From Anaerohalosphaeraceae bacterium (GTDB lineage Bacteria > Planctomycetota > Phycisphaerae > Sedimentisphaerales > Anaerohalosphaeraceae): a stretch of DNA of 24,467 nt. Under the pieces are notes generated by a model that worked only from the letters and a program-made list of their open reading frames with translations, searched no databases and was not told the DNA's origin. The number at the start of each line of letters is the position of its first letter. Position 1 is the stretch's first letter. The position numbers and the translations under genes are program-made. The stretch covers positions 1 to 24,467 of the forward strand of contig JBNRMN010000087.1 of NCBI GenBank assembly GCA_050309605.1. The letters are read 5' to 3'. Shown here in pieces: positions 238 to 22,320 of the stretch.

Positions 238-346
238 TATAAAAAAGAGACAATTATCTTGCAGAGCCGCAATCTCAATTAACAATACCCGTGGCTATCG
301 TCTGCACGAAACATCTATAAATATAGATTAAACAGTGAGTTACATT

Positions 347-1999: not shown

Positions 2000-2036
2000 T
2001 TTTTTTAGTCCGAAATAAAAGTGTTTGGGCCGTCGA

Positions 2037-3437
2037 TCAGAGAAGGGCGCTCAATTCTTGACAGATTATTTTGAAATCCTCCATTTCGGCAAGATTGCGG
2101 TATTCCTGAGGATCACTGGCATGATCGAACAGTTCGCGTGCCAGAATTCGGTCGTTTCGAATCCATTCATTGTAACGCCAGCGTTTTGTCCGGACCGACT
2201 TGCCGGCGATCTGCCCGCGCTGGACCTGGGTAAAGGCCGCTGTTTTTTTCCATGGTGTGTTCGGTTCGCTCAGAAGCGGGCGAATACTGATCCCATCGAG
2301 ATTCTTCGGAGGGGTCAACCCGCACAAATCGGCAAACGTAGGATACAGATCCACCATTTCCACAAATTGATCACATCGCCTGCTCACCCCGGTTTGGCCG
2401 TCCACGACGGCAATCATGGGAATACGGGCCGAATCCTCCATCAAAACGGCCTTGTTCCACCACTCATATTCTCCCAGATTGTAACCGTGGTCGCCAACCA
2501 AAATGACGGCGGTGTCTTTCCATAAGTTTTGCCGATCCATCGCGTCAATCACTTTGCCGACTTGCGCATCAACAAAGGTCGTACAGGCGTAATAAGAACG
2601 TAGAAACTCCCGCTGATCCTGCAATGAAAATTCTTTCATGTTCTCATGCCAACCACTGCCGATCATGTAGTCCTCCTTGGGGGAGCGATTGGCCGGGGAA
2701 AACGGCGGCATCAATTCGTTCAGGGGATACAAATCAAAGTAGTATTTGGGTGCATGGAACGGATCATGCGGCTTATGAAAGCCGACGGCCATAAAGAAAG
2801 GTGTCGTGTGCGGTTCTTGAAGAAATTCTACAGCGGCCGCGGCGATTTGGCCGTCCGGCTGGTCTTCATCGGTTCCCTCGGCGGCAAGCCAATTGCACCA
2901 ATCGATCTTTCCGCCGGTCATATTCCGGCCTTCGCCGCGTTTGCCGCGTGCGGTCTGCTCAAAATCCAGAGCGATATCCCAGGCCTGCGGATCATCGTGT
3001 TCCCCTCGTCCATGAAAGATTTTTCCCAGGCCGACGGTGTAATAGCCGTTGTCTTTGAATAATTTGGGCAGTGTCGGATGATTTACATGGATATTCCAGG
3101 TTGTGTAATTATCCAAAACTTTTGTCTTGTCCGGGCGCAGTCCTGTTAAAAACGAAGAACGGCTGGGATTGCAGACGGGAAACTGACAATAGGCACGATC
3201 GAAGATGACCCCTTTTTGAGCCAGCCTGTCTAAATGGGGTGTTTGCACAAGCGGATTGCCATAACAGCCCATAATATTTTTGAGGTCTTCGATGATAATA
3301 AACAGGGCATTTTTGGGCTTATTTGCCGCAGTCACCTTGGCCGAGCCGTGTAAAACAGCGGGCATAACAGACGCCGCACCAATCGCGCCAAATGAGCACT
3401 TGATAAAATTTCGTCGATTAGGCTGCTTTGAGTCCAT
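2037..3437 (-). CDS. Tat-exported formylglycine-dependent sulfatase (S1 family, iduronate-2-sulfatase-like)
   Basis: Twin-arginine signal NRRNFIK; N-x-L-F-I-I-I-E-D-L; CxPxR motif CNPSRSSFLTG (CNPSR at 3173-3159); GKIFH; GFHKPHDPF; GDHGYNLGE; ELFDHASDPQE. RBS AAAGGA upstream. Confidence 0.92.
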   Translation of the reverse strand: MDSKQPNRRNFIKCSFGAIGAASVMPAVLHGSAKVTAANKPKNALFIIIEDLKNIMGCYGNPLVQTPHLDRLAQKGVIFDRAYCQFPVCNPSRSSFLTGLRPDKTKVLDNYTTWNIHVNHPTLPKLFKDNGYYTVGLGKIFHGRGEHDDPQAWDIALDFEQTARGKRGEGRNMTGGKIDWCNWLAAEGTDEDQPDGQIAAAAVEFLQEPHTTPFFMAVGFHKPHDPFHAPKYYFDLYPLNELMPPFSPANRSPKEDYMIGSGWHENMKEFSLQDQREFLRSYYACTTFVDAQVGKVIDAMDRQNLWKDTAVILVGDHGYNLGEYEWWNKAVLMEDSARIPMIAVVDGQTGVSRRCDQFVEMVDLYPTFADLCGLTPPKNLDGISIRPLLSEPNTPWKKTAAFTQVQRGQIAGKSVRTKRWRYNEWIRNDRILARELFDHASDPQEYRNLAEMEDFKIICQELSALL

Positions 3438-6500: not shown

Positions 6501-7930
6501 TGAACGAATCCTGTAAACGCCCCGGCGATATTGTCCGCGCCGGGTGTGGGCGGTGAAAAAAACCGCGTCCGGCCGTAATAATGCCCATACGATATATCAT
6601 CCTTCTGCGGCGGATAACCATAAACCCCGCCTCCTAACGCGATGGAGTCGTACACGTGAATCGGCGTTATCCCGTCGGCGGCAAACAGTCCCAGATATTC
6701 ACCGTCTTTGGACAAACTAAAGTTGGTGTGCAGATATCCGTCCGGGTCTATATACGGGTAATTGTCGGGGGTTTCGGCCTGCGTCTTGCCGGAGGCGAAG
6801 ACGAGCAGATAATCGCCCGGCTCCAGGGTCAATTCTCCGCTGTCTGCGGGAAACTGCCATTGGGTCGGATTGTCGGCGTCATCCGTCAGATACCAACCGC
6901 TGAGATCGACAGGGATCCGGGAATTATTGTACAGTTCAATCCAGTCTGAAGCCTCGAGGTGGCCGTCCAGGATTTGACCGGGACCAAGCGGCGACCTGCT
7001 TTGGTTGCCGGCCAGAAATTCATTGATCAAAACGAGAGGGGTTTGATCGCCCCAGTTCTGCGAAAGCAGTGTCATATCGTTTAACGTGACCGTCTGGTCC
7101 GTATCCAGGTCGGCACAGTCATACCGAGTGGACGCTGTCGCTGCTAGGTTCCACACCTCCTTCAAACGCAATGCGCGATCATAGAGTCGTACCTCATCCA
7201 TCAAGCCTTTAAAATAGTGACTTGGCGAAGGCAAAGGGGCTTGAAAAACCCCCAGTTTCGTCGTTGCCCATGCCTGCGTATCAACAGTCTGAGGAACAGT
7301 TGCCCCAATGGTCTCAAGTTGACCATCAACATACAGATTAATATGGTCGGTCGTGGAACCGTCAAACGTAACGGCAACATGATGCCAGCGATTGTCGGTC
7401 AAAACAGTCGTACCGATGACAAATCCGCCCCCTGTGTCAACACGCAGCACGCCCGTCTCGTCAATCCAAACGACCCACCGGCCCCCGACAACATCCCTGT
7501 TCCCCCACGATATAATTTCGCCGGGCGATTGCCCGGTTTTAATCCATGCCGTACAAGTCCGCGGATGGGATCCGGTGATACCTTGGTAGCTGCTCCACAA
7601 ATACCCGGAGACCCCGTCAAACTGTATCGCACCGCCAAAAACACCACCCGTCGGATTCCAACCGACCCCTCCGACAACAGTGCCGTGGTGTCCCCACCCT
7701 GAAGAATCAGTCGCTGCACTGCCGCGGCTTTCATCAAGCCTCCAATGTGCAACACATCCCGCTTCACTGCAAGAGGGATTTTCCAGCCACTGCGAAGCCA
7801 TAAGAATCAGGTCATTCAGATCGACCCGGCAGTCGCCGTTGAGATCACCCACAAGAAAACAGCTTTCCGAGGTACCTGAAAGCAACAGTAAGCCCAAGAT
7901 AAAACACACTGCCGGTGCGCGAAGTTTCAT
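3542..7930 (-). CDS. Secreted multidomain protein: dockerin-like half, LamG/ConA-like, dockerin-like half, lamin-tail domain, Fn3-associated domain, CotH kinase, second Fn3-associated domain with inserted beta-sandwich, C-terminal beta-sandwich
   Basis: Signal peptide; GDLNGDCRVDLNDL; LamG motifs VAHWRLDE, WHHVAVTFDG, FKGLMDEVRLYDRAL; LTD motifs INEFLAGN, DWIELYN, LSGWYLTDD; IRYTTDGTAP; CotH motifs RGQST, DWIL, GPPWDFDRGF; IYYTLDGTDPR. Confidence 0.88.
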   Translation of the reverse strand: MKLRAPAVCFILGLLLLSGTSESCFLVGDLNGDCRVDLNDLILMASQWLENPSCSEAGCVAHWRLDESRGSAATDSSGWGHHGTVVGGVGWNPTGGVFGGAIQFDGVSGYLWSSYQGITGSHPRTCTAWIKTGQSPGEIISWGNRDVVGGRWVVWIDETGVLRVDTGGGFVIGTTVLTDNRWHHVAVTFDGSTTDHINLYVDGQLETIGATVPQTVDTQAWATTKLGVFQAPLPSPSHYFKGLMDEVRLYDRALRLKEVWNLAATASTRYDCADLDTDQTVTLNDMTLLSQNWGDQTPLVLINEFLAGNQSRSPLGPGQILDGHLEASDWIELYNNSRIPVDLSGWYLTDDADNPTQWQFPADSGELTLEPGDYLLVFASGKTQAETPDNYPYIDPDGYLHTNFSLSKDGEYLGLFAADGITPIHVYDSIALGGGVYGYPPQKDDISYGHYYGRTRFFSPPTPGADNIAGAFTGFVHRPDVNIKGGGYVNPLEVTVTCDTPGASIRYTTDGTAPCLLVGRDYTGPITIDDSTTLIAKAFKPGLHPSDARIETYIFVEPDLAAFNSNLPIVIVDTVGQEIPYDKINRPFIDCRVIMMDTDDQSGRASMVGLDHLKEKGIGQIRYRGQSTYGQGHYALEFRDEYGRDQDVSPLGMPEESDWILSYDIIDYTLLKNEMAFQWFREMGHYAPRQRYAEVYLNTGGGKIKSRNFIGIMALREQIDRDKNRVAIARLDELHNLEPHVSGGYIIKHDKYNEGDTLLADGPGGIVDPDYLESSPYGIQVTGAGKPILQYPPAGRVTVPQIEWITGYMNQASAVLWQNTSSSYYPGPERHYTDYLDPASWIDHFIVEQAGLDSDAFWGSYRMHKDRGGKLFSGPPWDFDRGFHNNGGTYNQPYDTWRTNGGLVGRWHQKLQECPEYKMLLADRWYQHRKTTINTNQTLAHIDAQVELMSEAMARTTKPFPYGYTWQQEVDLLKTWIVNRLSWLDGEIASRFAARPPIFNPVGGEVNPRDVLYISKPFGASGTIYYTLDGTDPRLTGGGVNPGAQIYTDTNDTTSERMVEMSSSVWHYLYDGSDQGTAWRGYGFDDSSWGSGSGRLGFGQDGIVTDIGPRVAGRRSAYFRHQFNVSNVSAITALEMTVVHDDGAVVYLNGQEIGRIFLPDGEIHYDTLAAATVHSTPVTTVFSGICPEFLVEGENILAVSVHQVTDHSSDLVFDLNLEAARIAGPAQIVLDRNLNVRARIKDGDNWSAQNQARFTIPLSLLHYWHFNHLTGNTVTSVAPDHTLLNGALAAYPGTGDGYLDSTTGSDINACLGQEAGQCLRVRNPSDTRELLLTLTTTGYEAVQLSYAVRRTTNGAHNQTIQYRTDSVGDWYTLDTVTVPESYQFFRFDFSGIPAAENNPEFAVRILFSGLNAAGTSGNNRFDNITLEGLALPGTNPPSPLTEPIPFTQAIVDASISLDLSEH

Positions 7931-8072: not shown

Positions 8073-11000
8073 TTATTGTACCCGGAGGTTTCCTCGGCTG
8101 GTCACATTGGCGCCGCTCGGCATCTTTGACGAAACCGTATTGATCACATTTCCGACAAACGCGGCCGACGCGGTCGTATCCATGTCCAGGAATAATCGAC
8201 CGGACGGAGTCGTCCCCAGGTAATCGCGCAGATTGCCGCCAAGATTGTGAAGGACAGCCGTGTTCCTGACCCGGAACACGCCGCTCTGACCAACCGGGAA
8301 CAGGTGGAACAACTGAAGCCGTACATCGCCGCCGTTGATCATGGCGCTGTATTGATGCGTGCCCCAGCCGGCCGAACTGAACATTCGAAAGACCCCGTCC
8401 AGAGAAGCGCCCGTTTCGAGGTACCGCCCCACAGTGCCGTTGACGGTCACGATCTGAGAATTGATCATATCCAATCCGCCGCTGCCGATAGAATCGATCT
8501 GCAGCGCATTGGTGCATTGATCAACACCCATGCCCAGGCAATGACCGGACGGGCCAAACCCGCCTTCCTGTACAGTATGGACGCCCTTGGCGCCGCCAAA
8601 GACAAAGTTTTGATGCAGTACCTGGCCGGTCATATGGCCGAACAGGTACGGCGTTGCATCCCGCCACTGGATTTTATGGACATTGTCCGCTGTCCCGATT
8701 GGAATACTGTCGTAATACAAGCCTTGATGGGTATAAGCCGACGGATTGAGCTGGACGTTGTGAAGCTGCCCGTCTGTCGTGCCGTGACCGATATGAATTC
8801 CTGTTTTCAGTGCGGTCGCGAAAATGTAATCAACATAATGCCGATCACATCGATAGGTCGCCAGGTCAAGCAGTTGATACGGGATCGTTGCAGCAATGTT
8901 TATCACATAAATATCCGCACCGAGTCCGCGAATTAAGTAGGGGTAAGGAACAAATCCGTACATCCCGGTTTGCGGATCATCATCATTCTCATCATAGATC
9001 TGTTCGGGATAATGGAAATTCAGGCCCCGCACACCGGACTCGTGCTCAAGCTGGATAAAGGGCGTCCCGTCGGCATGGCTGCGGCCGGCATAGACATTGA
9101 GCAGACTGCCTTTTTCGCGGGTGCTGTGGGACGTATCGTAAATCCCTCTCAATTCAACGCCGGTCGGGACGACCAGCGTGCCGTTGAGGCGATAGTTGCC
9201 GCCCGGCACAAAGACGATCCCGCCGCCGTTGGCGCCCGCATCGGCCAGCGCCGCCTGAAAGGCGCCGGTATCATCGGTCACGCCGTCGGCCGCTGCATGA
9301 TAGGGGGCATCCGTTACGACATACAGGTCCGTCTTTGCGGATTGATAGGCCATTGTCGGTTTCTTGAAATCATATGCCGGCAGGGGATCGGCCGCAACAG
9401 GAGCAGAGTCAATGAGCACCGGATACGACGTGTTGTTAATAATCTGAGCACTGCCGGCAAATGTATTGCCCTGAAGGGTCGCCCCGCGGACCCCGCCGGA
9501 AACCCGGATGTGATGGGGCGACGCTGCGCCAAAGCGCGAATTGATAACCGATATATAGCCGCCGTTGAGATTCAAGGGACCCTGGAGGTCCGATGACATC
9601 ATCATCACCCGTGCGGCGCCGTCGCTGAGAATCGCCTCGACGGACGCCTGAATGCTGCATGTATGGAACAGAGTGGCCTGATCTGCGGAGGGCGACAGGT
9701 AAACGCCCCGTTCGGCGCTCTGGATATTAAATCGCGTAAACTGATAACCGGCATTGGCGCTGGCCTGGATATAAACGCCTGTTTGGCAATTGAGCAGATT
9801 AAACCTATACGATTGGCCGTTGGGATACTTGCCGTCATAACGCGACGGCCGTAACGCCAAACCGATGTTGTATCCTTCCACCGTCACATAACAGGAATAC
9901 GACCAGTCGATGCGGCGAACGATCAGACCGGTGCCGTGATCGTAAAGCCACCCTTCATGCTGCCCGGCGGTCGGGGCGCCGGCCAGGCCGGAACCGGCCC
10001 AGTAGGCCGGCGAAAAGTGAACCGTCTCGATGCGCCCGATGTCCGCCAGACAATCGTACTCAATGCCTGTCTTGAGCGGCGTCCCATAAACATTCCGAAC
10101 AAACGGACGGGCGGTTGTGCCTTCTCGAAAGGTGGTTACGCCGAAATAACTATTGACAAACGTTACGTCTTCAACCGTTCCGCCGTCCATCTGAATCGTA
10201 GGCGGATAAGGCTGAATATCGGTCGGCAGCTGTTCGGGATACCAAATCGTGATTCCCTTGATCCCGGCACTGCCGATCAGCCGGATAAACGCAGCGGCGT
10301 TCTCGTCTCCACGGCCGGCGTACGCCTGCAGAATCGTCCCGTCAATCGGACTGCCGGGCTGCGGCTGCGGCCAGTCGCCCCGAAGGGTCACTTGAGCCGG
10401 AATGGTCAATGTGCCGCTGACTTTATACTGGCCTGCCGGCAAAAACAGCGTTCCGCCGCCCAGATTATCGATTGAGATCAGGGCCGTCTGAAGCGCGTCG
10501 GTCACATCGGTCTGACCGTCTGCAACAATGCCGAAATCCCCGGCGTCATACGGCGTTACGATGATGTCATCGGTCGGATAAATCGTCTCGACAACCCGCC
10601 AGGTGGTCATAATCCCCCCAAGCCAGTTAGACGCAAGAACAGCAAAATCGCGATAGTTCACCAGACACCACGGATCAAAATTGGCCGGACTGTCGCAGTC
10701 GGAAACCAACCAGTCGGAAGCCAGCATCGCCAGATCGCCGATGTCCACGCCTCCGTCTCTATTGATGTCCCCGTCCACCGGCTCGAACGCCTGAATGGTT
10801 GTTTTGCCGTGATGCGTTGCGTTATAATCATAGAGAACTCGACCGGCGCCGCCATAGGCGACAATTTTTCCGGCTGAAACATAATTGCCCACCTCATTCG
10901 TTCGGTCGCCATTGATCACAATATATCCCGATTCAACATTGAGAATCGAAGCGCCTTTGATCGAATTGACACCATCCATTCTGTTCAGATTCAGAACGCC

Positions 11001-12482
11001 GCCGTCTCTGACATTCACGTAGCCGGTACCGCCATTCCACCCCAGCCCGAACTGCTGTGAGACATTGACCGTACCGCCATCGATATCCAGAATGCCGATT
11101 GAAGGAGAAGAAAATCCAATCCACATATGACCGCTGATATTGACAACGCCTCCGCCCTCAACGATCATCCGATTACTTGTTCCGCTATTGTATCCGATAC
11201 TCGACCAGGACGCCGTTGCAGTCAGACATCCTCCGTTTTGAACGCGAATCGTACTGTTGGCGTTTTGAACCAGTTGGTTGAAAATGTGGGAACCGGTGAC
11301 CCGACTCTCTGCCCGATTGGAATTGGTAAAACGGCAATTGAAGTTCCCGTCCGGACGTTTTGGATTGGTGCCCGTCCAATGGCTGGCGGTTGCCCAGTTA
11401 CCCGGCGATCCTGTTTTATTCCAAATGATATCCGTCGTTGTAGCCGACCATGTGGTGGCACTGGCGGGAGCCGATTCGTCGGTCTGAATGCCGAAAGGAT
11501 CCCGCAGGGTGACCGTATAGATATAGGTAGTCTCAGCCTGCAGGCCGGTCGCCGTAAAGACAGGGTCGGACTGCCAGCCGCTTGTCAGGCCACCGGGATT
11601 ACCGGAAAGCTCCTTGAAAAGATATTGCACCGGCCCATTGACAGACCAACCGACGGTTGCGGTCATGGTAATCGTATTGGCTCCGATGGCAACCGGCGGC
11701 AAAGAAAACGTCGCCGGATTCGGACTGGGCGGCGTCGGATCGACCGCCAAGGCAGTGATTGTCGTCTTGCCGGGATTTCTGTCGTCATAGTCATAAATCA
11801 AGACCCCAAGACCGCCATAAGCAACGATTTTTGTTCCTTCCCACGCACTGATCGCACCGGCGCCGTCTCCATGCATTAGAATCGTTCCCTCCCGTACGTC
11901 GATGAGCATATCACCGCCCATCGTCAGCGTGCCCGCACGGATATCCACCACCCCTCCGCCATCCACCGTGAGCAGACCAAAGCCGTCATCTAGACCCATC
12001 TGCAGATTACCGGTATGGATTATCACCGTGCCGCCGTCCACAATCAGATGCGATGGCACACCGTTCGCTTCGGTCAAGGCCCTGCGTCCGACAAACAGAC
12101 GGTGGGCGGTATTCAGCGTTCCGCCGGCTTCGACAATCAGGGTCGCCGGCCGGTTGTAGCCCACCGCCGACCAGCTTCCGACGGCGTGTGTCGTCAATGT
12201 GCCGCCGTTTACAATTCTTAAAAAGGTTCCGGTTTGTGTACCGTTATCGCCCATGGCGAGCATGCCGACCCCCACTGCCGTCTCCACGATACACTCGGCG
12301 GCGCCGTCCACATTGAACTGGGCCTTATCCGCCAAATCCGGCAAGCCATTGGTCCAGTGGGCCGCGTCGCTCCAGCTGGCCGCAGCCGGGTAACTCGCGG
12401 CAGGTGACCACACGGTATCGGCAGCCGCAAAGGCCCCGATCACAAGCACAAGCGCCGGTATGAAACGTGAAAAACGTGGCAT
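8073..12482 (-). CDS. Large secreted putative polysaccharide-degrading enzyme: beta-solenoid domain, Fn3, second beta-solenoid domain, dockerin-like pair, two tandem pectate-lyase-3-like beta-helices (GH55/GH87-like fold)
   Basis: Start moved to ATG 12482 (MPRFSRF...; AGAGGA RBS at 12494-12489; signal peptide ending AFAAA). Fn3-like DPTPPSPNP...GLQAETTYIYTV. Dockerin-like GDINRDGGVDIGDLAMLASDWL and VNYRDFAVLASNWL. Beta-helix cap motifs DFGIVADGQTDVTDALQTAL...GGGTLFLPAGQY and ADGVTDDTGAFQAAL...GGGIVFVPGGNY. Confidence 0.85.
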   Translation of the reverse strand: MPRFSRFIPALVLVIGAFAAADTVWSPAASYPAAASWSDAAHWTNGLPDLADKAQFNVDGAAECIVETAVGVGMLAMGDNGTQTGTFLRIVNGGTLTTHAVGSWSAVGYNRPATLIVEAGGTLNTAHRLFVGRRALTEANGVPSHLIVDGGTVIIHTGNLQMGLDDGFGLLTVDGGGVVDIRAGTLTMGGDMLIDVREGTILMHGDGAGAISAWEGTKIVAYGGLGVLIYDYDDRNPGKTTITALAVDPTPPSPNPATFSLPPVAIGANTITMTATVGWSVNGPVQYLFKELSGNPGGLTSGWQSDPVFTATGLQAETTYIYTVTLRDPFGIQTDESAPASATTWSATTTDIIWNKTGSPGNWATASHWTGTNPKRPDGNFNCRFTNSNRAESRVTGSHIFNQLVQNANSTIRVQNGGCLTATASWSSIGYNSGTSNRMIVEGGGVVNISGHMWIGFSSPSIGILDIDGGTVNVSQQFGLGWNGGTGYVNVRDGGVLNLNRMDGVNSIKGASILNVESGYIVINGDRTNEVGNYVSAGKIVAYGGAGRVLYDYNATHHGKTTIQAFEPVDGDINRDGGVDIGDLAMLASDWLVSDCDSPANFDPWCLVNYRDFAVLASNWLGGIMTTWRVVETIYPTDDIIVTPYDAGDFGIVADGQTDVTDALQTALISIDNLGGGTLFLPAGQYKVSGTLTIPAQVTLRGDWPQPQPGSPIDGTILQAYAGRGDENAAAFIRLIGSAGIKGITIWYPEQLPTDIQPYPPTIQMDGGTVEDVTFVNSYFGVTTFREGTTARPFVRNVYGTPLKTGIEYDCLADIGRIETVHFSPAYWAGSGLAGAPTAGQHEGWLYDHGTGLIVRRIDWSYSCYVTVEGYNIGLALRPSRYDGKYPNGQSYRFNLLNCQTGVYIQASANAGYQFTRFNIQSAERGVYLSPSADQATLFHTCSIQASVEAILSDGAARVMMMSSDLQGPLNLNGGYISVINSRFGAASPHHIRVSGGVRGATLQGNTFAGSAQIINNTSYPVLIDSAPVAADPLPAYDFKKPTMAYQSAKTDLYVVTDAPYHAAADGVTDDTGAFQAALADAGANGGGIVFVPGGNYRLNGTLVVPTGVELRGIYDTSHSTREKGSLLNVYAGRSHADGTPFIQLEHESGVRGLNFHYPEQIYDENDDDPQTGMYGFVPYPYLIRGLGADIYVINIAATIPYQLLDLATYRCDRHYVDYIFATALKTGIHIGHGTTDGQLHNVQLNPSAYTHQGLYYDSIPIGTADNVHKIQWRDATPYLFGHMTGQVLHQNFVFGGAKGVHTVQEGGFGPSGHCLGMGVDQCTNALQIDSIGSGGLDMINSQIVTVNGTVGRYLETGASLDGVFRMFSSAGWGTHQYSAMINGGDVRLQLFHLFPVGQSGVFRVRNTAVLHNLGGNLRDYLGTTPSGRLFLDMDTTASAAFVGNVINTVSSKMPSGANVTSRGNLRVQ

Positions 12483-12559
12483 CGCAAATCCTCTGTCTCT
12501 GATTGTTTCGTTTAATGTCAGTCGCTGCTGCAATGATCAAGTAATCAGATATTATTCAA

Positions 12560-12589
12560 AGGGGTTGCGAGCCAAAACCCGCAACCCCT
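12560..12589 (-). terminator. Stem-loop / partial intrinsic terminator downstream of the PEP-CTERM gene
   Basis: Minus strand AGGGGTTGCG-GGTTTTGGCT-CGCAACCCCT: perfect 10-bp stem, extendable by G.U pairs, followed by TTGAAT (short U tract). Confidence 0.7.
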
Positions 12590-12610
12590 AAAATCAAGTA
12601 TCCAACCTCG

Positions 12611-13411
12611 TTATCGTGTTTTCTTCTTTCTGAGCAGCCCCGCAGCCCCCAGGCCCAGCAGAGCCAGCGTCGTCGGCTCAGGAACCACAACGGTCGTTAA
12701 GTCTAAAGCAGAGTCATATGTCGCTTCTACATCGCCGAGAATACCATTGCCGGCGATTAATCCGTTGGCAGCATACGTTTCTATCACGCCAACAAAATTT
12801 CCCGGCAGGGTAACTATGCCAGTTCCCATGATGTTCAAAAGCGAGTTCTGCTTAATCGAGGTCTCTCCATCGCCATGGATATTTGACAGGGCCAAAAGAC
12901 CACCGGAATAGACATTCACAAATCCATCTCCGCCGTTCCAGCCAAGCCCAAACATCTGGGCAACAGTAACGGTACCATAAATATCCACTGTACCCGCGGC
13001 ACCGGGATTGAAGCCAATCCACGCATGGTTACCAAAATTGAACGTGCCGCCGGACTCAACGATCAGGTTGGCGACATTATTCCACCCAATAGAGGACCAA
13101 CCATCGGTGCGGGTGTTAAGGATCCCGCCGTCCAACACGCGGATGACACCACCCGGGCCGCCGTCGCCTTGAACCAATTGCCCCGCATCAAAGGTTCCCG
13201 CTACCTGGGCCTCTGCGGCATCAGTAACATTAAACACGGATTTACTATCCCCATCGGTAACCGGGACTCCATTGGTCCAGTTGGCCGCATCTCCCCAGTC
13301 GCCCACATCCGGCGGATAGATACCATTGGCCGCGGGGTTCCACACGGTGGCGGCGTTTGATACACAAACCAAGCTGACAACCATTAACAACACAACTAAT
13401 TTTCTCATCAT
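12611..13411 (-). CDS. PEP-CTERM sorting-domain surface protein carrying one copy of the repeated beta-solenoid domain
   Basis: Start moved to ATG 13411 (or 13408), GGAGG RBS at 13420-13416; signal peptide MMRKLVVLLMVVSLVCVSNA; C-terminus VPEPTTLALLGLGAAGLLRKKKTR (PEP at 12682-12674, TM helix, basic tail). Confidence 0.92.
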   Translation of the reverse strand: MMRKLVVLLMVVSLVCVSNAATVWNPAANGIYPPDVGDWGDAANWTNGVPVTDGDSKSVFNVTDAAEAQVAGTFDAGQLVQGDGGPGGVIRVLDGGILNTRTDGWSSIGWNNVANLIVESGGTFNFGNHAWIGFNPGAAGTVDIYGTVTVAQMFGLGWNGGDGFVNVYSGGLLALSNIHGDGETSIKQNSLLNIMGTGIVTLPGNFVGVIETYAANGLIAGNGILGDVEATYDSALDLTTVVVPEPTTLALLGLGAAGLLRKKKTR

Positions 13412-13450
13412 TCTGCCTCCAAAAATAAAAGGTACTTGCAACAAATCGCC

Positions 13451-13473
13451 TGCCGTTCCACAGTGAAACGGCA
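13451..13473 (-). other. Small stem-loop in the 5' UTR of the PEP-CTERM gene
   Basis: Minus strand TGCCGTT-T-CA-CTG-TG-G-AACGGCA: 10-bp stem with one U.G pair, 40 nt before the start codon. Confidence 0.55.
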
Positions 13474-13532
13474 ATCGCGTCCTGCCGCATCTTTCGATTG
13501 ACACATTCATCATACGTTCCACATCCCCATCT

Positions 13533-13566
13533 CGGACACCCCGGACGCTGCCGCCCGGAGTGTCCG
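13533..13566 (-). other. Strong intergenic stem-loop
   Basis: Minus strand CGGACACTCCGGGCG-GCAG-CGTCCGGGGTGTCCG: 15-bp stem with two G.U pairs (C/A mismatches on the plus strand) and no U tract on the minus strand. Confidence 0.7.
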
Positions 13567-13596
13567 TTTTGAGGTCAATAAACGACTCCCGACCCC

Positions 13597-15186
13597 TTAC
13601 GGCAGGGGGACAGGCGCCGTTAAACTGTAGTCCGTCAGCCATTGAGAAGCGATCCTTGCAAAATCATCCAGATTCACTTTACAATCAAGCGCCCCCGGGA
13701 TATCGCCCGGATAATCAGCGCCCCGGCCGATGGCCCGTGCCGCCTGACAGGGGTTGTCCGCACAATCAAGCTGGACTGACGCAGAATTGGACACATTCAG
13801 CCCATCGTCCACCGTTACAGTCACGGTAAACGGTCCAGAGTGATAATCCACCGTCACGGTCGGATTGGGATCGGTGTTGCTGGGCGTAAAGACGATATTC
13901 GGATCATCAAGATTCGTCGTCCATTCATAAGCCACCATGGTAGGTTCGCCCTGGACCAGCTCCGTGGCCAATTGAATCGGCACACCTTTCCACGTAATCG
14001 TCGGCGGCGTGGTAATGTTCACCAACGGCGGCAATATATTTGTGACATCGAATTTATATACGTCACCTTTGACGACAACGAAATTGGGATCGGTTTCATA
14101 GTCAACAATTGCCGGATCGCCGTAAAGATACGAATCGACCTTCCAGTAATACGTTGTGGGAGGGTCTCCAATAACCGGGGCATTGACCATGACCGTCGTT
14201 GTATTTTCGCCGGCAACGACCACTGGGGTGAAATCAGCATAACTGGAAAAATTAGGATCATTCTCATCTTCTATCCATGTCGGATCGGTTCCAAACCAAA
14301 CGTCCACCCAAACCGAGTCGCCCGGCTCTGCCGGCTCCAGGTTGGTCCAGGCCAACGCCACATCAACGGCTAAAATCGTCTGGTTGTACGCCGGATAAGG
14401 ATCCAGAGCAGACATCGCGGTAATCGTTGTCCTTCCGGGGTTGGTCACGTTATAGTCATAGACCAATGTTCCGGCACCGCCAAAGGCCAGTATTTTTCCG
14501 GCCGCTGCATAGTTTTCAACAGCCGTGACCCGATCGCCGCCGATAATCACCGTCCCAAATCGTATATCAAGGAACGATCCATCCCAGATTGAGCTGGTGT
14601 TATCCCACTGATTCAAATTCAGAACGCCCTCATTGACATACATATGGGCGACGCCGTTTTGTGAACCGTTGTACCAACCCAGTCCGAAATTTTGGCCAAC
14701 GTTAATGGTGCCGCCATTTATAAAAATCTCGCCGACTCCGGTATTTTGCATGCCGTTCCACATATGACCCCCGGAGTTCAAGACGCCTCCGGTCTCTACG
14801 ATCAACGTAGCGGGCCTGTTATACCCGACAGACATCCATTGGCCGACACCGGTCGTAATGCTGCCGCCATCCATAATACGCAGCACGTTGTTTTGCTCCG
14901 CGGCCCCTCCATCACCCATTACCAGATGATGAACACCCTGTGCACCCGTCACAATACACTCGGCGGCCCCGGCCACATTAAACACGGCCTTGGTATCCAA
15001 CGGCGGCTGCTCGGTCCCGAAGCCCGGAAGCCCGTTGGTCCAGTTGGCTGCAATGTTCCAATTTGATACGCCGTCCACGATTGCATTTGGGTCGGGATTT
15101 CCCGCCGGGTTCCACACCGTTGTTGCAGCGGCAAACCCTATCGTCCACAAAACGACGATTAAACATACTATTTTTTTACATCTCAT
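13597..15186 (-). CDS. Secreted protein: beta-solenoid domain, Fn3/Ig-like, PKD-like, single C-terminal dockerin-like motif (paralog B)
   Basis: Start moved to ATG 15186 (MRCKK...), GGAGG RBS at 15199-15195; signal peptide; DVWFGTDP...TYYWKVD; YEWT...TVTVTVDDG; C-terminal GDIPGALDCKVNLDDFARIASQWL. Confidence 0.85.
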   Translation of the reverse strand: MRCKKIVCLIVVLWTIGFAAATTVWNPAGNPDPNAIVDGVSNWNIAANWTNGLPGFGTEQPPLDTKAVFNVAGAAECIVTGAQGVHHLVMGDGGAAEQNNVLRIMDGGSITTGVGQWMSVGYNRPATLIVETGGVLNSGGHMWNGMQNTGVGEIFINGGTINVGQNFGLGWYNGSQNGVAHMYVNEGVLNLNQWDNTSSIWDGSFLDIRFGTVIIGGDRVTAVENYAAAGKILAFGGAGTLVYDYNVTNPGRTTITAMSALDPYPAYNQTILAVDVALAWTNLEPAEPGDSVWVDVWFGTDPTWIEDENDPNFSSYADFTPVVVAGENTTTVMVNAPVIGDPPTTYYWKVDSYLYGDPAIVDYETDPNFVVVKGDVYKFDVTNILPPLVNITTPPTITWKGVPIQLATELVQGEPTMVAYEWTTNLDDPNIVFTPSNTDPNPTVTVDYHSGPFTVTVTVDDGLNVSNSASVQLDCADNPCQAARAIGRGADYPGDIPGALDCKVNLDDFARIASQWLTDYSLTAPVPLP

Positions 15187-15234
15187 CTTTATGGCCTCCA
15201 CAAAAAATGTTTTCTTTATTATAGTCCGGGTCGT

Positions 15235-16791
15235 TTACGGGATAACCGTCGGCTCTGTGAGTGCATAGTCTGCCAGCCAATCGACAACGAGCGCCGCAAG
15301 GTCTGAAATATCCACCACACAATCATCCCCTGCGATATTCATTGGATAGTCGTCCGCAATACCGGCGACAACCGCCGCGGCACACGGATCAGCGGCCACA
15401 TGCAGCACCATTGAATCGGAATCCATTTCAGGATTGGCCGCGTCCCAAACCGTCGCCGTCAAGGTAATGGGGCCGGCAGCATAATCAACCTCGACAACCG
15501 GATCTTTGGCCGTGGTGCTCGGGAAGAATACGGCGTTCGGATCGCTGGCCGTCCATTCAATAAAGACCTCAGAGGGACCGCTTTTGGTTATCGTCGCCTG
15601 CAGTTGAACCGGTTCATTGATCCAGGTAACGGTATCGGGCGTGTCAATGACGACGGTCGGCGGCGTATCATCGTTAACGTCAAACCTGAACACATCGCCT
15701 TCGATCACGGGGGTTTCAGGGTCATCATAGTCAACCACTGCCGGATCGCCGTAAATGTAAGAATCCACCTGCCAGTAATAGGTGGTGGGCCGCATATCGT
15801 CGAAAACCGGCGCATTGACCGTTACGGTCGTGACATCCTGTCCAGCCGCAACCTCTTGCGAGTACGCCGGGGACAGCTTGTTCGGATCGGTTCCGAACCA
15901 GACATCGACCCACACCGGGTTGCCGGGCTCGTTGGGATCCAAATTCGTCCACACCAAATCGACAGGAGCGATTTCGCCCGACGGAACCGGTAACACGTCT
16001 CTGTAACCCGGCCAGGGATCCATCGGATGGGTCGCTCTGACAAGGGTCCTGGTTGCCCCTTCAAAAGGTTCTCTTGTGACCGTCAATTGGCCGGCGCCGC
16101 CAAAACCAACAAGAGTTCCAGCGTTGATACGACTCCAAAGCCGGCTGGGGGCGGTCGCATAATTGTTATCAATCACAAGGGTACCGAACCTGACATCGCA
16201 AAGAGAACCTGGCTCGTCGAAATCATCCGGATAGTAACGCATCCGGAAAATACCATCATTAATCGTTAAAAAGCCATTACCTCCTGCCTTTCGCCCTAAA
16301 TCGACAGCGTCAGCAACACGGACATATCCTCCATTGATAACAAGTCTTCCAATACCGCCGTTTTCCATTCCAAACCACAGGTGGGATTCCAAAAGAACCT
16401 GTCCGCCTTCTTCGACGATCATCGTACCTCCATCATTGTTGTACCCCAAACCGCTCCAGCCGCCACCGGTTTTACGAATGACGCCGCCGTCCATCACGCG
16501 AATAATGTTCGTAAAAGCGCCGCCGTCTCCTGTGACCAGGCTCTCCGAAAACGGCAGTGTGTCGGTTGTCACCTGACACTCCACGGCCGCACCGGCGGCA
16601 TTAAACACGGGCTTTTGGTCAACGTCTCCGGGGAGCCCGTTGGTCCAGTTGGCTGCAATAGTCCAGTTGGACACCCCGTCCACAATGTCGTTCGGGTCCG
16701 GATTCGCCGCCGGGTTCCACACCGTTGTTGCAGACGCCGGCCCGGCCGTCAACAAGACGGCTGCCAAGCATATTACAGTGATTCTTCTCAT
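15235..16791 (-). CDS. Secreted protein with the same architecture as 13597-15186 (paralog A)
   Basis: Start moved to ATG 16791 (MRRIT...), GGAGG RBS at 16804-16800; signal peptide ending PASA; collinear with paralog B along its full length; C-terminal NIAGDDCVVDISDLAALVVDWL. Confidence 0.85.
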   Translation of the reverse strand: MRRITVICLAAVLLTAGPASATTVWNPAANPDPNDIVDGVSNWTIAANWTNGLPGDVDQKPVFNAAGAAVECQVTTDTLPFSESLVTGDGGAFTNIIRVMDGGVIRKTGGGWSGLGYNNDGGTMIVEEGGQVLLESHLWFGMENGGIGRLVINGGYVRVADAVDLGRKAGGNGFLTINDGIFRMRYYPDDFDEPGSLCDVRFGTLVIDNNYATAPSRLWSRINAGTLVGFGGAGQLTVTREPFEGATRTLVRATHPMDPWPGYRDVLPVPSGEIAPVDLVWTNLDPNEPGNPVWVDVWFGTDPNKLSPAYSQEVAAGQDVTTVTVNAPVFDDMRPTTYYWQVDSYIYGDPAVVDYDDPETPVIEGDVFRFDVNDDTPPTVVIDTPDTVTWINEPVQLQATITKSGPSEVFIEWTASDPNAVFFPSTTAKDPVVEVDYAAGPITLTATVWDAANPEMDSDSMVLHVAADPCAAAVVAGIADDYPMNIAGDDCVVDISDLAALVVDWLADYALTEPTVIP

Positions 16792-16937
16792 TTTGACGAC
16801 CTCCACAAAAAGTTATTCATTTGATTGCGATGAAACACTTCACTCTATACGAAATAGGTAAAACATCCTTGTCGCCGCTAACCATCCCTGCGTACACACC
16901 CACACATCCATTCACACCGGCTTGCCATACAAACGGA

Positions 16938-17762
16938 CTACCGCATCCAGATCGGCCAGTCGTCATTGTCATTCGCAAGCGGATTGCCGATATTAAAGTC
17001 TTTGTGCCATTTTTGCCTCCAGAGTTCCGTCAGACGGATGGACGCGGCGGACCCATCGGCATAAACGCTGTTGACTGATTTGCCATGACGAACCAGCGTA
17101 AACGCACGCATGTACCCCTGACCATCATAGACGCCGAACTCCTCTGAATCCGGCCGATCCGTATGGTGCGGCCACGCATCCACGGACCGTGAATCCAAAT
17201 AGAGGGGCACTCCGGAAGGCTGCCGGATATGACTCATTTTGCCCCAAAATGAATCCACAGGCAACGGGGCGCCAAACGTTCCAACGCTGGGGTCCATGAT
17301 CCAGGAATTGGGAGCATAGCTGCACCAAAACCATTGCCCGGCGTCCGGATGCGCTGTGTCGATGATCTCCCTGCCCCAGCATTCATCCCGTCGTTCAGGA
17401 AAATATCGCCCATCGATTACCCAATCGACAGAGGGGCTAAAGTCTTGTTTTCGTTGAGCTTTCGCGCAGATGAGTATATCGGGTTGGTCGATGTAATACG
17501 GCCGCAAGGTCAGGAACCACCACTGGCCGCGAGGGTCATTGCGGCCGTCATTGTTCCAATCGGCATCCGGGAAGCGGTCATCATTCGCAGAGGTATAAAA
17601 GGAAAGAATCAAATTCCATTGTCGCAAATTCGATGTACAAACAATAGATTTGGCCAGCTCGTGTGCTTTTTGAAGCGACGGTGCTATGATGGAAAGCAGC
17701 AGGGCAATAACAGCAATGACAACCAGCAGTTCAATCAGCGTGAACCCCTTTCGCCGTGGCAT
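16938..17762 (-). CDS. Prepilin-type N-terminal cleavage/methylation domain protein with H-X9-DG C-terminal motif (DUF1559-like)
   Basis: Start moved to ATG 17762 (or 17768), AAGGGA RBS; MPRRKG|FTLIELLVVIAVIALLLSIIAPSL class III signal; CxSNLRQ; H-GKSVNSVYA-DG at 17087-17052. Confidence 0.92.
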   Translation of the reverse strand: MPRRKGFTLIELLVVIAVIALLLSIIAPSLQKAHELAKSIVCTSNLRQWNLILSFYTSANDDRFPDADWNNDGRNDPRGQWWFLTLRPYYIDQPDILICAKAQRKQDFSPSVDWVIDGRYFPERRDECWGREIIDTAHPDAGQWFWCSYAPNSWIMDPSVGTFGAPLPVDSFWGKMSHIRQPSGVPLYLDSRSVDAWPHHTDRPDSEEFGVYDGQGYMRAFTLVRHGKSVNSVYADGSAASIRLTELWRQKWHKDFNIGNPLANDNDDWPIWMR

Positions 17763-17842
17763 CTTCATCCCTTTCAGAATAATACACACATAATTATGGC
17801 TGCTTACAGGGAGCATAAGTGTTGCCATTGCTCTAATCTGCC

Positions 17843-18232: not shown

Positions 18233-19249
18233 ATGATTACAGTGAAAAGTGCCGTCGCCCTCAATGAGCCGCTCTCGATCCAGCATTTAGCCCCACATTC
18301 CACAATGGACGATTTCGAGTCCATCGAATCGACCAGTGACGCGCGGTTTAAGGTGGGTTCATGCGGGGTCCACTCGATTTATCGGACAGGCGACAAAAAA
18401 GTAGAGTTTGTCTTTTTCTCAGGCCATATCCTGGCCTATGTCAAGTCGGCATTAGGCTATCCGGCCTATTATCCCATCCATCCGGTCGAAATGAAAACAC
18501 CGATGAAAGCCGTATTAATGGATCTTGATGGGACCAGTGTCAGAAGCGAAGAGTTTTGGGTGTGGATTATTCAAAGGACGGTGGCCTCGCTTCTCGATCA
18601 GCCGAATTTTGAGCTTTCTCAGGACGATTTGCCGTTTGTATCGGGCCATAGCGTGTCGGAACACCTCCAGTACTGCATTGACACATATTGTCCCGACAAA
18701 ACGGTCGAACAGGCCAGAACGTACTATTTCATGCACACCCGCCATGAAATGAACGAGATCATGAATGGCCGAGGAAGAACCGATGCATTTGTGCCTGCAC
18801 CGGGCCTGAAAGAGTTTTTGTATGCGTTAAAGGCCAGGAAGATTAAAATCGGACTGGTCACCTCAGGCTTGTACGAAAAAGCCTGGCCTGAAATTCTCTC
18901 GGCGTTCAAAACGCTGAACATGGCGGACCCGAAAGACTTTTATGATGCAATCATCACGGCTGGTTTCCCGCTTCGAAAAGGCTCAGCCGGCACATTGGGC
19001 GAGTTATCTCCAAAACCGCATCCCTGGCTCTATGCCGAGGTCGCTCGTGTCGGATTGGGGATTGAGCAAAACGAAAACGGGCATATGGTGGGTATTGAAG
19101 ACAGCAGCGCCGGGGTGTGTGCACTCAGGCTTGCTAATATTCCGGTCATTGGTATAACAGGGGGCAATATCGAGCAAAGCGGGACCAGAGGGCTGTGCCA
19201 TCATTATTGCAAAGACTTCGACCAGATTTTACGCATAATTGGGGATTAA
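18233..19249 (+). CDS. HAD-superfamily phosphatase (beta-phosphoglucomutase-like, subfamily IA) with an N-terminal extension
   Basis: Motif I DLDGT (18521-18535), motif II VTSG, motif III KPHP, motif IV IEDSxxG. Start uncertain (ATG 18233, GTG 18242 or ATG 18305). Confidence 0.88.
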   Translation: MITVKSAVALNEPLSIQHLAPHSTMDDFESIESTSDARFKVGSCGVHSIYRTGDKKVEFVFFSGHILAYVKSALGYPAYYPIHPVEMKTPMKAVLMDLDGTSVRSEEFWVWIIQRTVASLLDQPNFELSQDDLPFVSGHSVSEHLQYCIDTYCPDKTVEQARTYYFMHTRHEMNEIMNGRGRTDAFVPAPGLKEFLYALKARKIKIGLVTSGLYEKAWPEILSAFKTLNMADPKDFYDAIITAGFPLRKGSAGTLGELSPKPHPWLYAEVARVGLGIEQNENGHMVGIEDSSAGVCALRLANIPVIGITGGNIEQSGTRGLCHHYCKDFDQILRIIGD

Positions 19250-19251
19250 CG

Positions 19252-22218: not shown

Positions 22219-22320
22219 GTTTGCAGACCGATAGGTTTGCTCGTCTCGTCCAGGACCCGTGAGATGTTAGATGCTTATTTGCCAACCCCAATGATGCTGA
22301 TAAGGAAGTGAGGTGTTCCG

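Follow-up and report, generated by a model that had tools for sequence, protein, structure and literature searches.

A predicted beta-helix module recurs five times in a four-gene cassette of a Phycisphaerae bacterium

A unit of ~225 amino acids is present in five copies in four adjoining genes of a polysaccharide-degrading Phycisphaerae bacterium, and it belongs to a widespread, large and real family that has no existing name. The confidently predicted structure is a right-handed parallel beta-helix, short and capped at both ends. The module is likely a non-catalytic binding, or address, domain, with polysaccharide as its most probable ligand; we infer binding from circumstantial evidence and put the probability of this reading at about one half.

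The window analyzed here, a stretch of 24,467 nucleotides, carries all five copies on the minus strand (Table 1), at coordinates that agree with an earlier note placing a five-copy domain at 10790-16728. In a MAFFT alignment, copy A is 48, 38, 35 and 33% identical to the other four, and 32 columns are invariant. The most distant pairs by BLASTP, A with D2 (E 3e-19) and C with D1 (E 5e-19), remain alike far beyond chance. The motifs that the earlier note had singled out, WSxxGYN, HxWxG and LGW, are real and are conserved family-wide. Its description of the domain as uncharacterized also stands: neither Pfam nor NCBIfam has a family covering the copies in proteins A-D within the window or the module in the 142 scanned of the 150 best family representatives, and a PDB sequence search with a module profile of 5 or 64 sequences returned no match.

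Table 1. Features of the four-gene cassette (positions in the window)
Feature	Position	Strand	Description
Gene A	15235..16806	(-)	523 aa; signal peptide, copy A, two Ig-like regions, Cys-containing dockerin-like C-terminal tail
Module copy A	16021-16728	(-)	236 aa; E 7.4e-92 against the profile made from the five copies
A-type C-terminal tail	15238..15381	(-)	Single degenerate dockerin-like segment (...DDCVVDISDLAALVVDWLADYALTEPTVIP)
Gene B	13597..15201	(-)	534 aa; paralog of A with identical architecture
Module copy B	14404-15123	(-)	240 aa
Gene C	12611..13411	(-)	266 aa from the MMRKL start; signal peptide, copy C, PEP-CTERM anchor
Module copy C	12680-13351	(-)	224 aa; copy used for the structure model
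PEP-CTERM sorting signal of gene C	12623..12685	(-)	Pfam and NCBIfam matches
Gene D	8073..12482	(-)	1469 aa from the MPRFSRF start (public gene calls); open frame from 12533
Module copy D1	11739-12419	(-)	227 aa
D1-D2 linker	11436..11738	(-)	~100 aa; Fn3/Ig-like by eye; no Pfam match at E<=0.01
Module copy D2	10776-11435	(-)	220 aa
Dockerin-like pair of segments	10614..10775	(-)	DGDINRDGGVDIGDL... plus degenerate second half; directly after D2
Putative enzyme core	8076..10613	(-)	Two tandem pectate-lyase-fold beta-helix domains

Protein C consists of a signal peptide (MMRKLVVLLMVVSLVCVSNA), the module and the terminal stretch VPEP...RKKKTR. Copy C fills the space between the two ends, which bears out the earlier reading that the domain forms the whole mature PEP-CTERM protein. 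The sorting signal is matched by PF07589 with 30.8 bits (E 2.8e-7; cut-off 20.7) and by TIGR02595 with 25.9 (cut-off 16), and gene C is the best of 29 PEP-CTERM matches in the genome, which contains two exosortase genes, both over cut-off. With a C-terminal signal and a genomic exosortase, gene C has the sequence features of an exosortase substrate. Its open frame extends to 13642 and overlaps the end of gene B.

Copies A and B begin directly behind the signal peptides of two ~525-aa paralogs. Protein A has no match in Pfam or NCBIfam, and gene B has a weak PKD match (13.4 bits, under cut-off). These proteins had been described as two dockerin-tagged paralogs. The module does lie at the N-terminus of both, but the tails are degenerate and have no match to Pfam Dockerin_1 (PF00404) at E<=0.1. 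Each contains one degenerate dockerin-like segment, as compared to the two Ca-binding segments of dockerin type I, and cohesin PF00963 has 0 matches in the genome (99.7% complete). Among the 150 best representatives of the family, a tail HMM identifies 28 proteins that end in the A/B-type tail.

The product of gene D carries two modules and a dockerin-like segment ahead of an enzyme core of tandem beta-helices. D1 and D2 both fall in the first 586 residues of this 1469-1486-aa enzyme, to which a 1469-aa protein (P0156) is 100% identical. Here, the dockerin-like segment nearly reaches Dockerin_1 (21.6 bits against a cut-off of 22.9). Pect-lyase_RHGA_epim (PF12708) matches gene D twice (1.3e-18), and relatives of the core are annotated as GH55, GH28-related or pectate lyase superfamily. 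Similarity to solved structures, including 5m5z (2.2e-7), is confined to the first ~50 aa of each half.

The dosage of the module on this one core is variable. The enzyme region of gene D has 316 homologs at E<=1e-10, and the 120 best of these carry zero (25 proteins), one (32), two (46), three (16) or four (1) copies, located on the N-terminal side of the core or flanking it on both sides. In precomputed Pfam annotation, most of the 25 proteins without a module have Laminin_G_3, F5/8-type-C, CBM6/35 or SLH; the remainder show the core alone (Cohnella-like, ~950 aa).

Surveyed for distribution and fusions, as the earlier note had suggested, the family comprises 1395 clusters at 50% identity, with one to five copies per protein and many C-terminal partners. 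Architectures were counted in the 150 best representatives and domains scanned in 142 of these. The 150 proteins contain 174 full-length instances (median 227 aa); 93 have one copy, 37 two, 11 three, seven four and two five, and 127 have their first copy beginning inside the N-terminal 45 residues. At the C-terminus, T9SS tails (32 of 142) and PEP-CTERM (10) are found. Other partners in the scanned set include lectin or CBM domains (Laminin_G_3, CBM_6, CBM_4_9, F5/8-type-C), enzymes (GH2, pectate-lyase-fold, Metallophos, PhoD, M60 peptidase, GDSL esterase) and spacer-type domains (Big_5, PASTA, Fn3, Cadherin-like). The family also has partners unrelated to glycans, namely the Metallophos and PhoD phosphatases, the M60 peptidase and HEAT repeats. 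Proteins made solely of two to five tandem copies and an anchor are common; for these, an adhesin or matrix role is as plausible as a CBM role.

The AlphaFold model of copy C, built from a 64-sequence alignment, has a pLDDT of 97.7 and a pTM of 0.93. Its N-terminal cap carries three near-invariant tryptophans (W-x14-W-x5-W; motif W..NWTNG.P), the middle has about six coils forming double-coil repeats of ~48 residues, and the C-terminal cap is a helix and a hairpin. In an hhalign self-comparison, the internal repeat shows up as an off-diagonal match shifted by ~47-49 columns (Prob 90, E 1.6e-6, 84 columns). Conservation across 179 instances is strongest at structural positions, the glycine turns and the cap tryptophans. 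It is also high at W85 (91%), the aromatic position 90 (91%), H109 (71%) and the aromatic position 111 (80%), and among polar residues at K37 (72%), D63 (80%), E99 (73%) and D173 (73%). By strand alternation, W85, H109 and W111 would point away from the core ladder of I88, V112 and L136 and possibly form an exposed patch. Y90, F114 and W138 probably belong to the core, so this part of an aromatic ladder proposed in the earlier note appears to face inward.

The cassette is conserved between genera: the order A-B-C-D with matching tails recurs in genomes G000, G006 and G016, with a variant in G031, and gene A is represented by positionally equivalent orthologs in G006 and G016. Across genera, three of the copies (A, C and D2) fall into well-supported ortholog groups; therefore, the paralogs are old and each has been kept. 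In G000, contig C82 carries an ECF sigma gene followed 8 bp downstream by a gene for a FecR-domain protein, the C-terminal part of which is a divergent module copy. A further protein (P0060) combines FecR with a full module copy.

Among solved structures, the nearest fold is that of the tapirins of Caldicellulosiruptor (4wa0, Z 14.8, rmsd 3.0 over 162 residues; 6n2b, Z 13.4; 6n2c, Z 10.8). Both tapirins and the module are non-catalytic cell-surface beta-helices in polysaccharide degraders, although identity in the structural alignments is 9-13% and there is no sequence relationship. According to the tapirin study (10.1101/359786), these proteins grip cellulose by flat aromatic side chains lined up along one face of the helix, and their genes are located close to a type IV pilus locus. 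The tapirin helix has 11-14 turns and a 40-residue loop joining both ends, as described in the same study (10.1101/359786), against about six coils in the module. Immediately upstream of the cassette is a prepilin-type gene (16938-17828), a tapirin-like setting. As prepilin-like genes are very common in Planctomycetota, this neighborhood may mean little. The likeness among beta-helix folds is generic: 36 chains reach Z>=8, and a Foldseek search with the module model gave no match at E<=0.001.

A second comparison is with the T5SS/PEP-CTERM-associated repeat of NCBIfam (TIGR04393, rpt_T5SS_PEPC), the 49-position model of which resembles the ~47-49-residue internal repeat of the module; both occur on PEP-CTERM proteins. 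When a Bradyrhizobium autotransporter with 14 TIGR04393 units is compared by hhalign, the module cap and first coil align with Prob 95.7-95.9 (E 5e-9 to 9e-9) and the coil region aligns to the repeat units with Prob 76-80 (E ~2e-5); a repeat-only TIGR04393 profile gives Prob 44. The TIGR04393 model itself has no match to proteins A-D at E<=0.1 or to copies C and D2 at E<=10, and it touches two of 64 family members, the better at 19.3 bits, under the 23-bit cut-off. The module has a fixed length and its own C-terminal cap, while TIGR04393 forms an open-ended array. These profile comparisons suggest that the module is a compact offshoot, through a distant link, of a beta-helix lineage that includes this repeat. 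Together with the confident beta-helix model, they support the earlier description of an autotransporter-passenger-like beta-solenoid. Classical type V secretion is rejected, as A-D contain no Autotransporter domain. The autotransporter-associated repeat PATR (PF12951) is likewise rejected as the identity of the module: the window copies have no match at E<=10, a single match in P0063 lies outside the module, and Atlas neighbors with PATR score only 0.79-0.80.

The passengers of TibA (Z 11.0 and 10.2) and Ag43 (Z 9.0-10.1) share the right-handed beta-helix adhesin fold, and both give the top Foldseek rows for the module, though weakly; 4kh3, titled 'a bacterial self-associating protein', reaches Z 9.4. 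Unlike these passengers, the module is short and capped, and A-D have no beta-barrel translocator. The flocculation-associated PEP-CTERM protein PepA (NF033554) resembles gene C in size and layout, with a signal peptide, a ~225-aa body and PEP-CTERM. Gene C aligns end-to-end with the 261-position PepA model at 17.0 bits (3.9e-3), and small PEP-CTERM members of the family align over their whole length (P0076, 2.5e-7; P0123, 9.1e-6; best 30.8 bits). PepA membership of gene C or of the family is rejected, since all scores (17-31 bits) fall far under the 80-bit cut-off.

A third likeness is to carbohydrate-binding modules. CBM-bearing anti-sigma factors are known, as in RsgI of Clostridium thermocellum, and known CBMs are mostly beta-sandwiches. 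The module differs from these in its beta-helix fold but behaves similarly: its copy number and position vary on one core, it is exchanged with lectin and CBM domains in other lineages, and it serves as the outer domain of an anti-sigma factor.

If the module is an address domain, anchored surface proteins would expose it at their outward-facing N-terminus, and secreted enzymes would carry it in variable numbers. Gene C would fix it to the cell envelope by the exosortase/PEP-CTERM route, in the products of genes A and B it would sit on Ig-like spacers followed by a dockerin-like tail, and the two copies in gene D would keep a tandem-beta-helix glycanase attached to the same polymer. The cell, the accessory proteins and the enzyme could thus meet on one substrate, and the divergent copy on the ECF anti-sigma factor, encoded at another place in the genome, may sense the same kind of ligand. 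The glycan-binding and targeting option of the earlier note is favored here on circumstantial grounds: the tapirin neighbors, the CBM-like dosage, the replacement by lectin and CBM domains and the FecR fusion. A tentative extension, which we consider possible but doubtful, is that the family represents a new beta-helix class of carbohydrate-binding/adhesin domains in PVC and T9SS bacteria, a common address tag for capture, holding and sensing. If so, one module would be the building block for sensing, capture and degradation alike.

One alternative is that the module associates with itself or with matrix: copies would stick to one another or to the exopolysaccharide layer of their own cell, such that A, B and D dock on a coat of protein C, or cells aggregate. 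TibA, Ag43 and 4kh3 follow the tapirins among the structural neighbors, an anchored protein and secreted partners of one conserved cassette carry the same module, and proteins of tandem copies and an anchor are common. The full-length alignments of small PEP-CTERM members with the PepA model point towards an own-matrix or aggregation role, and PepA overexpression is reported to convert soluble exopolysaccharide to cell-bound polymer (PMC9850573). However, the PepA scores, far under 80 bits, are partly due to the shared signal peptide and PEP-CTERM ends, the passenger likeness is set against the lack of an autotransporter barrel in A-D, and both the anti-sigma fusion and the lectin/CBM replacement on the same core fit ligand sensing better than self-docking. 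We regard self-association as rather unlikely.

Alternatively, the module could be inert, binding no ligand itself and acting as a rigid spacer, cap or aid to folding or export at the mature N-terminus. Its place right behind the signal peptide in 127 of 150 proteins, its combination with Big_5, PASTA, Fn3 and Cadherin-like domains, and the concentration of conservation at glycine turns and cap tryptophans are consistent with this. It would be rare, however, for a spacer to persist as five paralogs, each conserved in its own right, within a single cassette, to vary from zero to four copies on either side of one enzyme core or to be the sole extracytoplasmic domain of an anti-sigma factor. Because the module is the whole mature protein C, there is nothing to space in that protein. 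We judge this proposal improbable, and more so one in which the module is itself a small catalytic beta-helix, such as a PL3-like polysaccharide lyase or an esterase, and the cassette a set of several enzymes. Small lyases are among the structural neighbors (pectate lyase 1ee6, 197 aa, and Cthe_2159, each Z 8.3) and the polar residues K37, D63, E99, H109 and D173 are well conserved. Yet a Z of 8.3 is within the range common for repeats, the conserved acidic and amide residues appear to lie just before the GG turns of successive coils in the manner of a structural ladder, no lyase or hydrolase family matches the module in sequence, and arrays of up to five copies and use in an anti-sigma sensor would be unusual for a catalytic domain; a catalytic module is thus very improbable.

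The cassette lies in the window beside genes for a sulfatase, a GH38 enzyme, a CotH/LamG protein and a sugar symporter. Three contigs from an RNA library fall on 13573-14547, which covers part of gene B, a weak hint of transcription. DNA of the window occurs in metagenomes from litter, digesters, sludge, compost, soil and animal gut.

Four consecutive minus-strand genes, designated A to D and spanning 8073-16806 of the window, carry five copies of one beta-helical module of about 225 residues: one each in A, B and C, and two in D (D1 and D2). The earlier note had described and located this repeated unit from the sequence alone, and both its description and its positions are borne out. Relative to copy A, the remaining copies are 48, 38, 35 and 33% identical; the five-copy alignment has 32 invariant columns, and BLASTP joins the most distant pairs of copies at E values of 3e-19 and 5e-19. 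The first copy directly follows the signal peptide in all four proteins. Because only a PEP-CTERM signal comes after copy C, the module makes up the entire mature protein C.

Genes of the cassette and features discussed with it (window positions unless a contig is named)
Feature	Position	Strand	Description
Gene A	15235-16806	-	523 aa
Gene B	13597-15201	-	534 aa
Gene C	open frame 12611-13642, likely start 13411	-	266 aa
Gene D	open frame 8073-12533; start 12482 in public gene calls (database protein P0156)	-	1469 aa
CotH/Laminin_G_3/LTD protein	3542-7930	-	1462 aa, secreted; directly downstream of gene D
Flanks	1-3437, 18233-24279		metallophosphoesterase, sulfatase, HAD hydrolase, GH38 alpha-mannosidase, sodium:solute symporter
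ECF sigma gene, then 8 bp later FecR-domain protein	contig C82 of the source genome (G000), locus L031:3612-5877	+	

The earlier note called the domain uncharacterised, which holds across Pfam, NCBIfam, PDB sequences and literature in the searches made. No Pfam or NCBIfam family covers the unit in the window, with copies C and D2 searched even at E ≤ 10, nor does any Pfam family cover it in the relatives scanned (142 of the best 150). Sequence searches of the PDB with 5- and 64-sequence profiles yield no solved structure, only one chance row at E 1.8. The ESM Atlas does not place the unit in any named family; the best named neighbours, G8 and PATR at 0.79-0.81, are leads only. Keyword searches of the open-access literature returned no description of the module and no paper naming 'PEP-CTERM-associated repeat' or TIGR04393. 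Publicly, member proteins are called 'hypothetical protein', 'PEP-CTERM motif-containing protein', or by the name of the attached enzyme.

The profile of the five copies and the survey of distribution and fusions that the note had proposed were both run, and reveal a large family with varied partners. Among 1.84 billion 50%-identity clusters, the profile matches 1395 representatives at E ≤ 0.001, of which 540 pass E ≤ 1e-10 and 170 pass E ≤ 1e-30; at least 1395 clusters at 50% identity are therefore without a Pfam or NCBIfam model of their shared domain. The best 150 representatives contain 174 full-length instances with a median of 227 aa, present as one (93 proteins), two (37), three (11), four (7) or five (2) copies, and in 127 the first copy begins inside the N-terminal 45 residues. 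Partner domains were counted in the 142 of these 150 that were scanned. They comprise sorting signals (T9SS tails in 32, PEP-CTERM in 10), spacer-type domains (Big_5, Cadherin-like, PASTA, Fn3), lectin or CBM-type domains (Laminin_G_3, CBM_6, CBM_4_9, F5/8-type-C), enzymes (GH2, pectate-lyase-fold in 6, Metallophos in 5, PhoD, peptidase M60, GDSL esterase) and FecR.

Within the window's order, 21 of 41 genomes match at E ≤ 0.001, the source genome counted, and 14 of the 40 others match at E ≤ 1e-10; none of 200 genomes evenly sampled from the rest of the phylum does so at E ≤ 1e-10. Named sources include Phycisphaerales MAGs, Anaerohalosphaera lusitana, Limihaloglobus sulfuriphilus, Haloferula rosea, Pontiella desulfatans and Verrucomicrobia MAGs. 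As T9SS tails are present on members, and the distribution of T9SS points to Bacteroidota-type bacteria, such bacteria probably carry the module as well. Being common in its own order and found in other phyla, yet absent from the 200 genomes elsewhere in its phylum, the module has a patchy spread, which suggests horizontal transfer among polysaccharide degraders. A search of genome contigs for related loci gave 10 loci, of which 3 are true relatives, all in Phycisphaerales/Phycisphaerae MAGs. The Bradyrhizobium, Verrucomicrobiales, Omnitrophota, Chitinophagales, Saprospiraceae and Rhodospirillales loci were rejected, having the cap motif alone in common, and a whole-genome search of four cap-motif-only genomes found no copy at E ≤ 1e-5.

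The Bradyrhizobium locus encodes an autotransporter with 14 units of TIGR04393, the T5SS/PEP-CTERM-associated repeat. In hhalign, the N-terminal part of this protein matches the five-sequence module profile at Prob 95.7 and the 179-instance profile at Prob 95.9 (E 5e-9), both matches spanning the cap motif W..NWTNG.P and the first coil. The coil region matches TIGR04393 repeat units at Prob 80 and 76 (E ~2e-5), and the match to a profile of the 50-aa repeats alone is weak (Prob 44). Self-alignment of the module reveals an internal repeat offset by 47-49 residues (Prob 90), the same length as the TIGR04393 unit. The TIGR04393 model itself matches none of the copies in the window; of 64 family members it hits 2, with scores short of its cut-off. 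Together, the hhalign tie and the model's misses argue that the module is an offshoot of the TIGR04393 beta-helix lineage rather than a member: TIGR04393 forms an open-ended repeat array, whereas the module is a capped single domain of fixed length. This tie shows how the latter can arise from the former. The domain is thus confirmed as real, widespread and unmodelled, with a distant tie to TIGR04393. It would form a domain family of its own within a kind already known, the beta-helix surface binding module, and a definition of it would give annotation to a large number of proteins, secreted or at the surface, in Phycisphaerae, Verrucomicrobiota, Kiritimatiellota and T9SS-bearing bacteria.

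Structure prediction and a fold search, also proposed in the note, give a confident beta-helix. An AlphaFold model of copy C from a 64-sequence alignment (pLDDT 97.7, pTM 0.93) supersedes a 5-sequence model (pLDDT 73.7). In it, an N-terminal cap leads into about six coils of three strands each, followed by one helix and a hairpin that closes the fold. Foldseek against the PDB finds no match at E ≤ 0.001 with either model. In exhaustive structural alignment the top matches are C-terminal domains from tapirins, the Caldicellulosiruptor adhesins (4wa0, Z 14.8, rmsd 3.0 over 162 residues; 6n2b, Z 13.4 on a second look; 6n2c, Z 10.8), followed by TibA (11.0), Pet (10.7), Ssp (10.0), Awp3b (9.7), pertactin (9.5) and Ag43 (9.0-10.1), although Z values of this size among repeat folds are no proof of common function. 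Every low-rmsd match is a right-handed beta-helix, left-handed ones appearing only at rmsd ~12 Å, so that the modelled domain is probably right-handed. Tapirins are cellulose-binding surface proteins, and their authors explain this binding by flat aromatic side chains lined up along one face of the helix (10.1101/359786).

Conservation across 179 module instances is highest in the cap, where W4, W19 and W25 reach 98-99% and N24 and P30 also rank among the most conserved positions, and at the glycine turns G62, G75, G126, G151 and G178 (93-99%). W85 is conserved at 91% and H109 at 71%; position 90 is aromatic in 91% and position 111 in 80%. In the third strand of successive coils, a hydrophobic ladder (I88/V112/L136) alternates with W85-A87, H109-W111 and M133-G135. 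This alternation suggests that W85, H109 and W111 may face outward as a small patch, and that Y90/F114/W138 may pack at the corner.

The A-B-C-D order, with the same tails, recurs in a genome of the same genus (G006, where the contig ends within D) and in one of another genus (G016). In a genome of another family (G031), the module occurs in a PEP-CTERM form, in a form of 846 aa whose tail is dockerin-like and in a two-copy enzyme of 1536 aa. In a tree of 21 module instances, cross-genome ortholog groups are recovered for A (100/100), C (100/99) and D2 (93/97); B is weakly supported (81/56) and D1 has no resolved placement. Because A, C and D2 group by ortholog across genomes, the paralogs go back a long way, and each has been preserved separately. 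A few kb downstream of the G016 cassette (L028:2-4193, minus strand), 684- and 704-aa proteins contain a divergent module subfamily (E ~1e-24) that forms a separate, long-branched clade.

The C-terminal 867 residues of D form two tandem pectate-lyase-fold halves. This core has 316 homologs at E ≤ 1e-10 among 7999 candidates scored; within the best 120, one to four module copies accompany it in 95 and none in 25. Copies flank the core on both sides in Haloferula, Pontiella and one Verrucomicrobia MAG. Homologs lacking a copy are more distant; most of them have Laminin_G_3, F5/8-type-C with Big_2 and a T9SS tail, CBM6/35 or SLH domains, and others (Cohnella) are the core alone. Against the PDB, phmmer and profile searches give the core no full-length match; the first ~50 residues of each half alone match, to mannuronan epimerases, tailspikes, GH55 glucanase, alpha-1,3-glucanase, iota-carrageenase and GH28.

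The only other trace of the module in the source genome lies on contig C82. There, the C-terminal ~240 residues of the 572-aa FecR-domain protein are a divergent module copy with a recognisable cap, and secreted Calx-beta-like, Laminin_G_3 and DUF1349/DUF6055 proteins are encoded downstream. The database protein P0060 likewise joins FecR to a full module copy. The C82 protein is anti-sigma-like, with the module copy as its extracytoplasmic part. This fusion resembles the RsgI anti-sigma factors of Clostridium thermocellum, which bear CBMs.

Taken together, these data favour, at a probability of roughly 0.5, a binding module without catalytic activity, whose ligand is probably a polysaccharide and which would supply one shared address to the anchored protein, the accessory proteins and the enzyme. 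The reading rests on behaviour like that of CBMs or adhesin tips and on the cellulose-binding best structural neighbours: the fold is discrete, sits at the outward end of anchored proteins, varies in dosage and position on one catalytic core, is exchangeable with lectin domains and is reused as a sensor domain. The main rival, that the module self-associates or binds the cell's own matrix, is considerably less probable. In its favour, self-associating autotransporters are among the structural neighbours, and small PEP-CTERM members align end to end, at sub-threshold scores, with the model of the flocculation protein PepA, whose overexpression turns soluble exopolysaccharide into bound polymer (PMC9850573). 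Both readings involve polymer at the cell surface. A pure spacer is unlikely, somewhat more so than self-association, and a small lyase is the most doubtful of all.

Between the alternatives raised in the earlier note, a glycan-binding module or a self-associating one that docks enzymes onto a PEP-CTERM layer, the putative glycan-binding role is the better supported. Should the module bind glycans, the carbohydrate-binding modules would gain a beta-helix fold, and there would be a handle on the substrate of a widespread tandem-beta-helix enzyme family. The four-gene cassette is a simple model of one recognition unit distributed over anchor, accessory proteins, enzyme and possibly sensor.

The note's description of the paralogs as dockerin-tagged is somewhat too strong: the dockerin-like segments in the A and B tails are single, degenerate and without a Pfam match, and the one following D2 reaches 21.6 bits, short of the 22.9 cut-off. 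No cohesin was found in the 99.7%-complete genome, which encodes two exosortases and 29 PEP-CTERM matches, that of gene C being the best of the 29. The A and B tails (15238-15381 and 13600-13743, minus strand) follow the pattern ...DC.V....D.A......WL.DY.LT.P..IP, with a second conserved Cys before it. A tail of this type ends 28 of the 150 best family representatives, mostly proteins of 491-554 aa, which makes the A/B architecture a widespread family by itself. These tails might be an anchoring or sorting signal of their own rather than a dockerin. The cohesin/dockerin 'planctosome' hypothesised for freshwater Phycisphaerae (PMC6461901) is a loose parallel to this genome, in which cohesin was not detected.

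The 1462-aa protein next to gene D combines an N-terminal dockerin-like segment, Laminin_G_3, a lamin tail domain, CHB_HEX_C/Fn3_assoc and a CotH kinase-like domain. The remaining flanking genes fit a glycan-foraging neighbourhood. Directly upstream of gene A (16938-17828, minus strand) lies a gene for a prepilin-type N-terminal methylation protein. The abundance of such pseudopilin-like genes in Planctomycetota limits the parallel with tapirin genes, which also adjoin a type IV pilus locus (10.1101/359786). Near-identical DNA occurs in 20 runs from 12 studies, covering poultry litter, soil, biogas fermenter, animal gut, sludge, digester and compost; two of the runs may be its source.

The open frame of gene C reaches 77 codons upstream of its signal-peptide start, overlapping the end of B. 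A terminator-like hairpin (13474-13450) separates B from the likely C start, and C may therefore be transcribed on its own; terminator-like sites are in no excess overall (12 vs 11.5 in shuffled sequence), and promoter-like sites are enriched, none of them decisive. In one RNA-library run, three contigs lie on gene B with 0-1 differences, a weak hint that B is transcribed, DNA carry-over being an alternative source. The same run has no contigs over A, D or C (beyond 35 bases), from which, in contigs-only data, silence does not follow. Metagenome contigs of several runs end or diverge near the PEP-CTERM-coding end of gene C (12648-12831): loose ends fall at 12648-12689 in runs X5, X9, X10 and X20, and one X9 contig has 142 bases at 12688-12831 swapped for 145 others. 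This pattern points to differences between strains, or to assemblies breaking at a sequence that the genome repeats 29 times.
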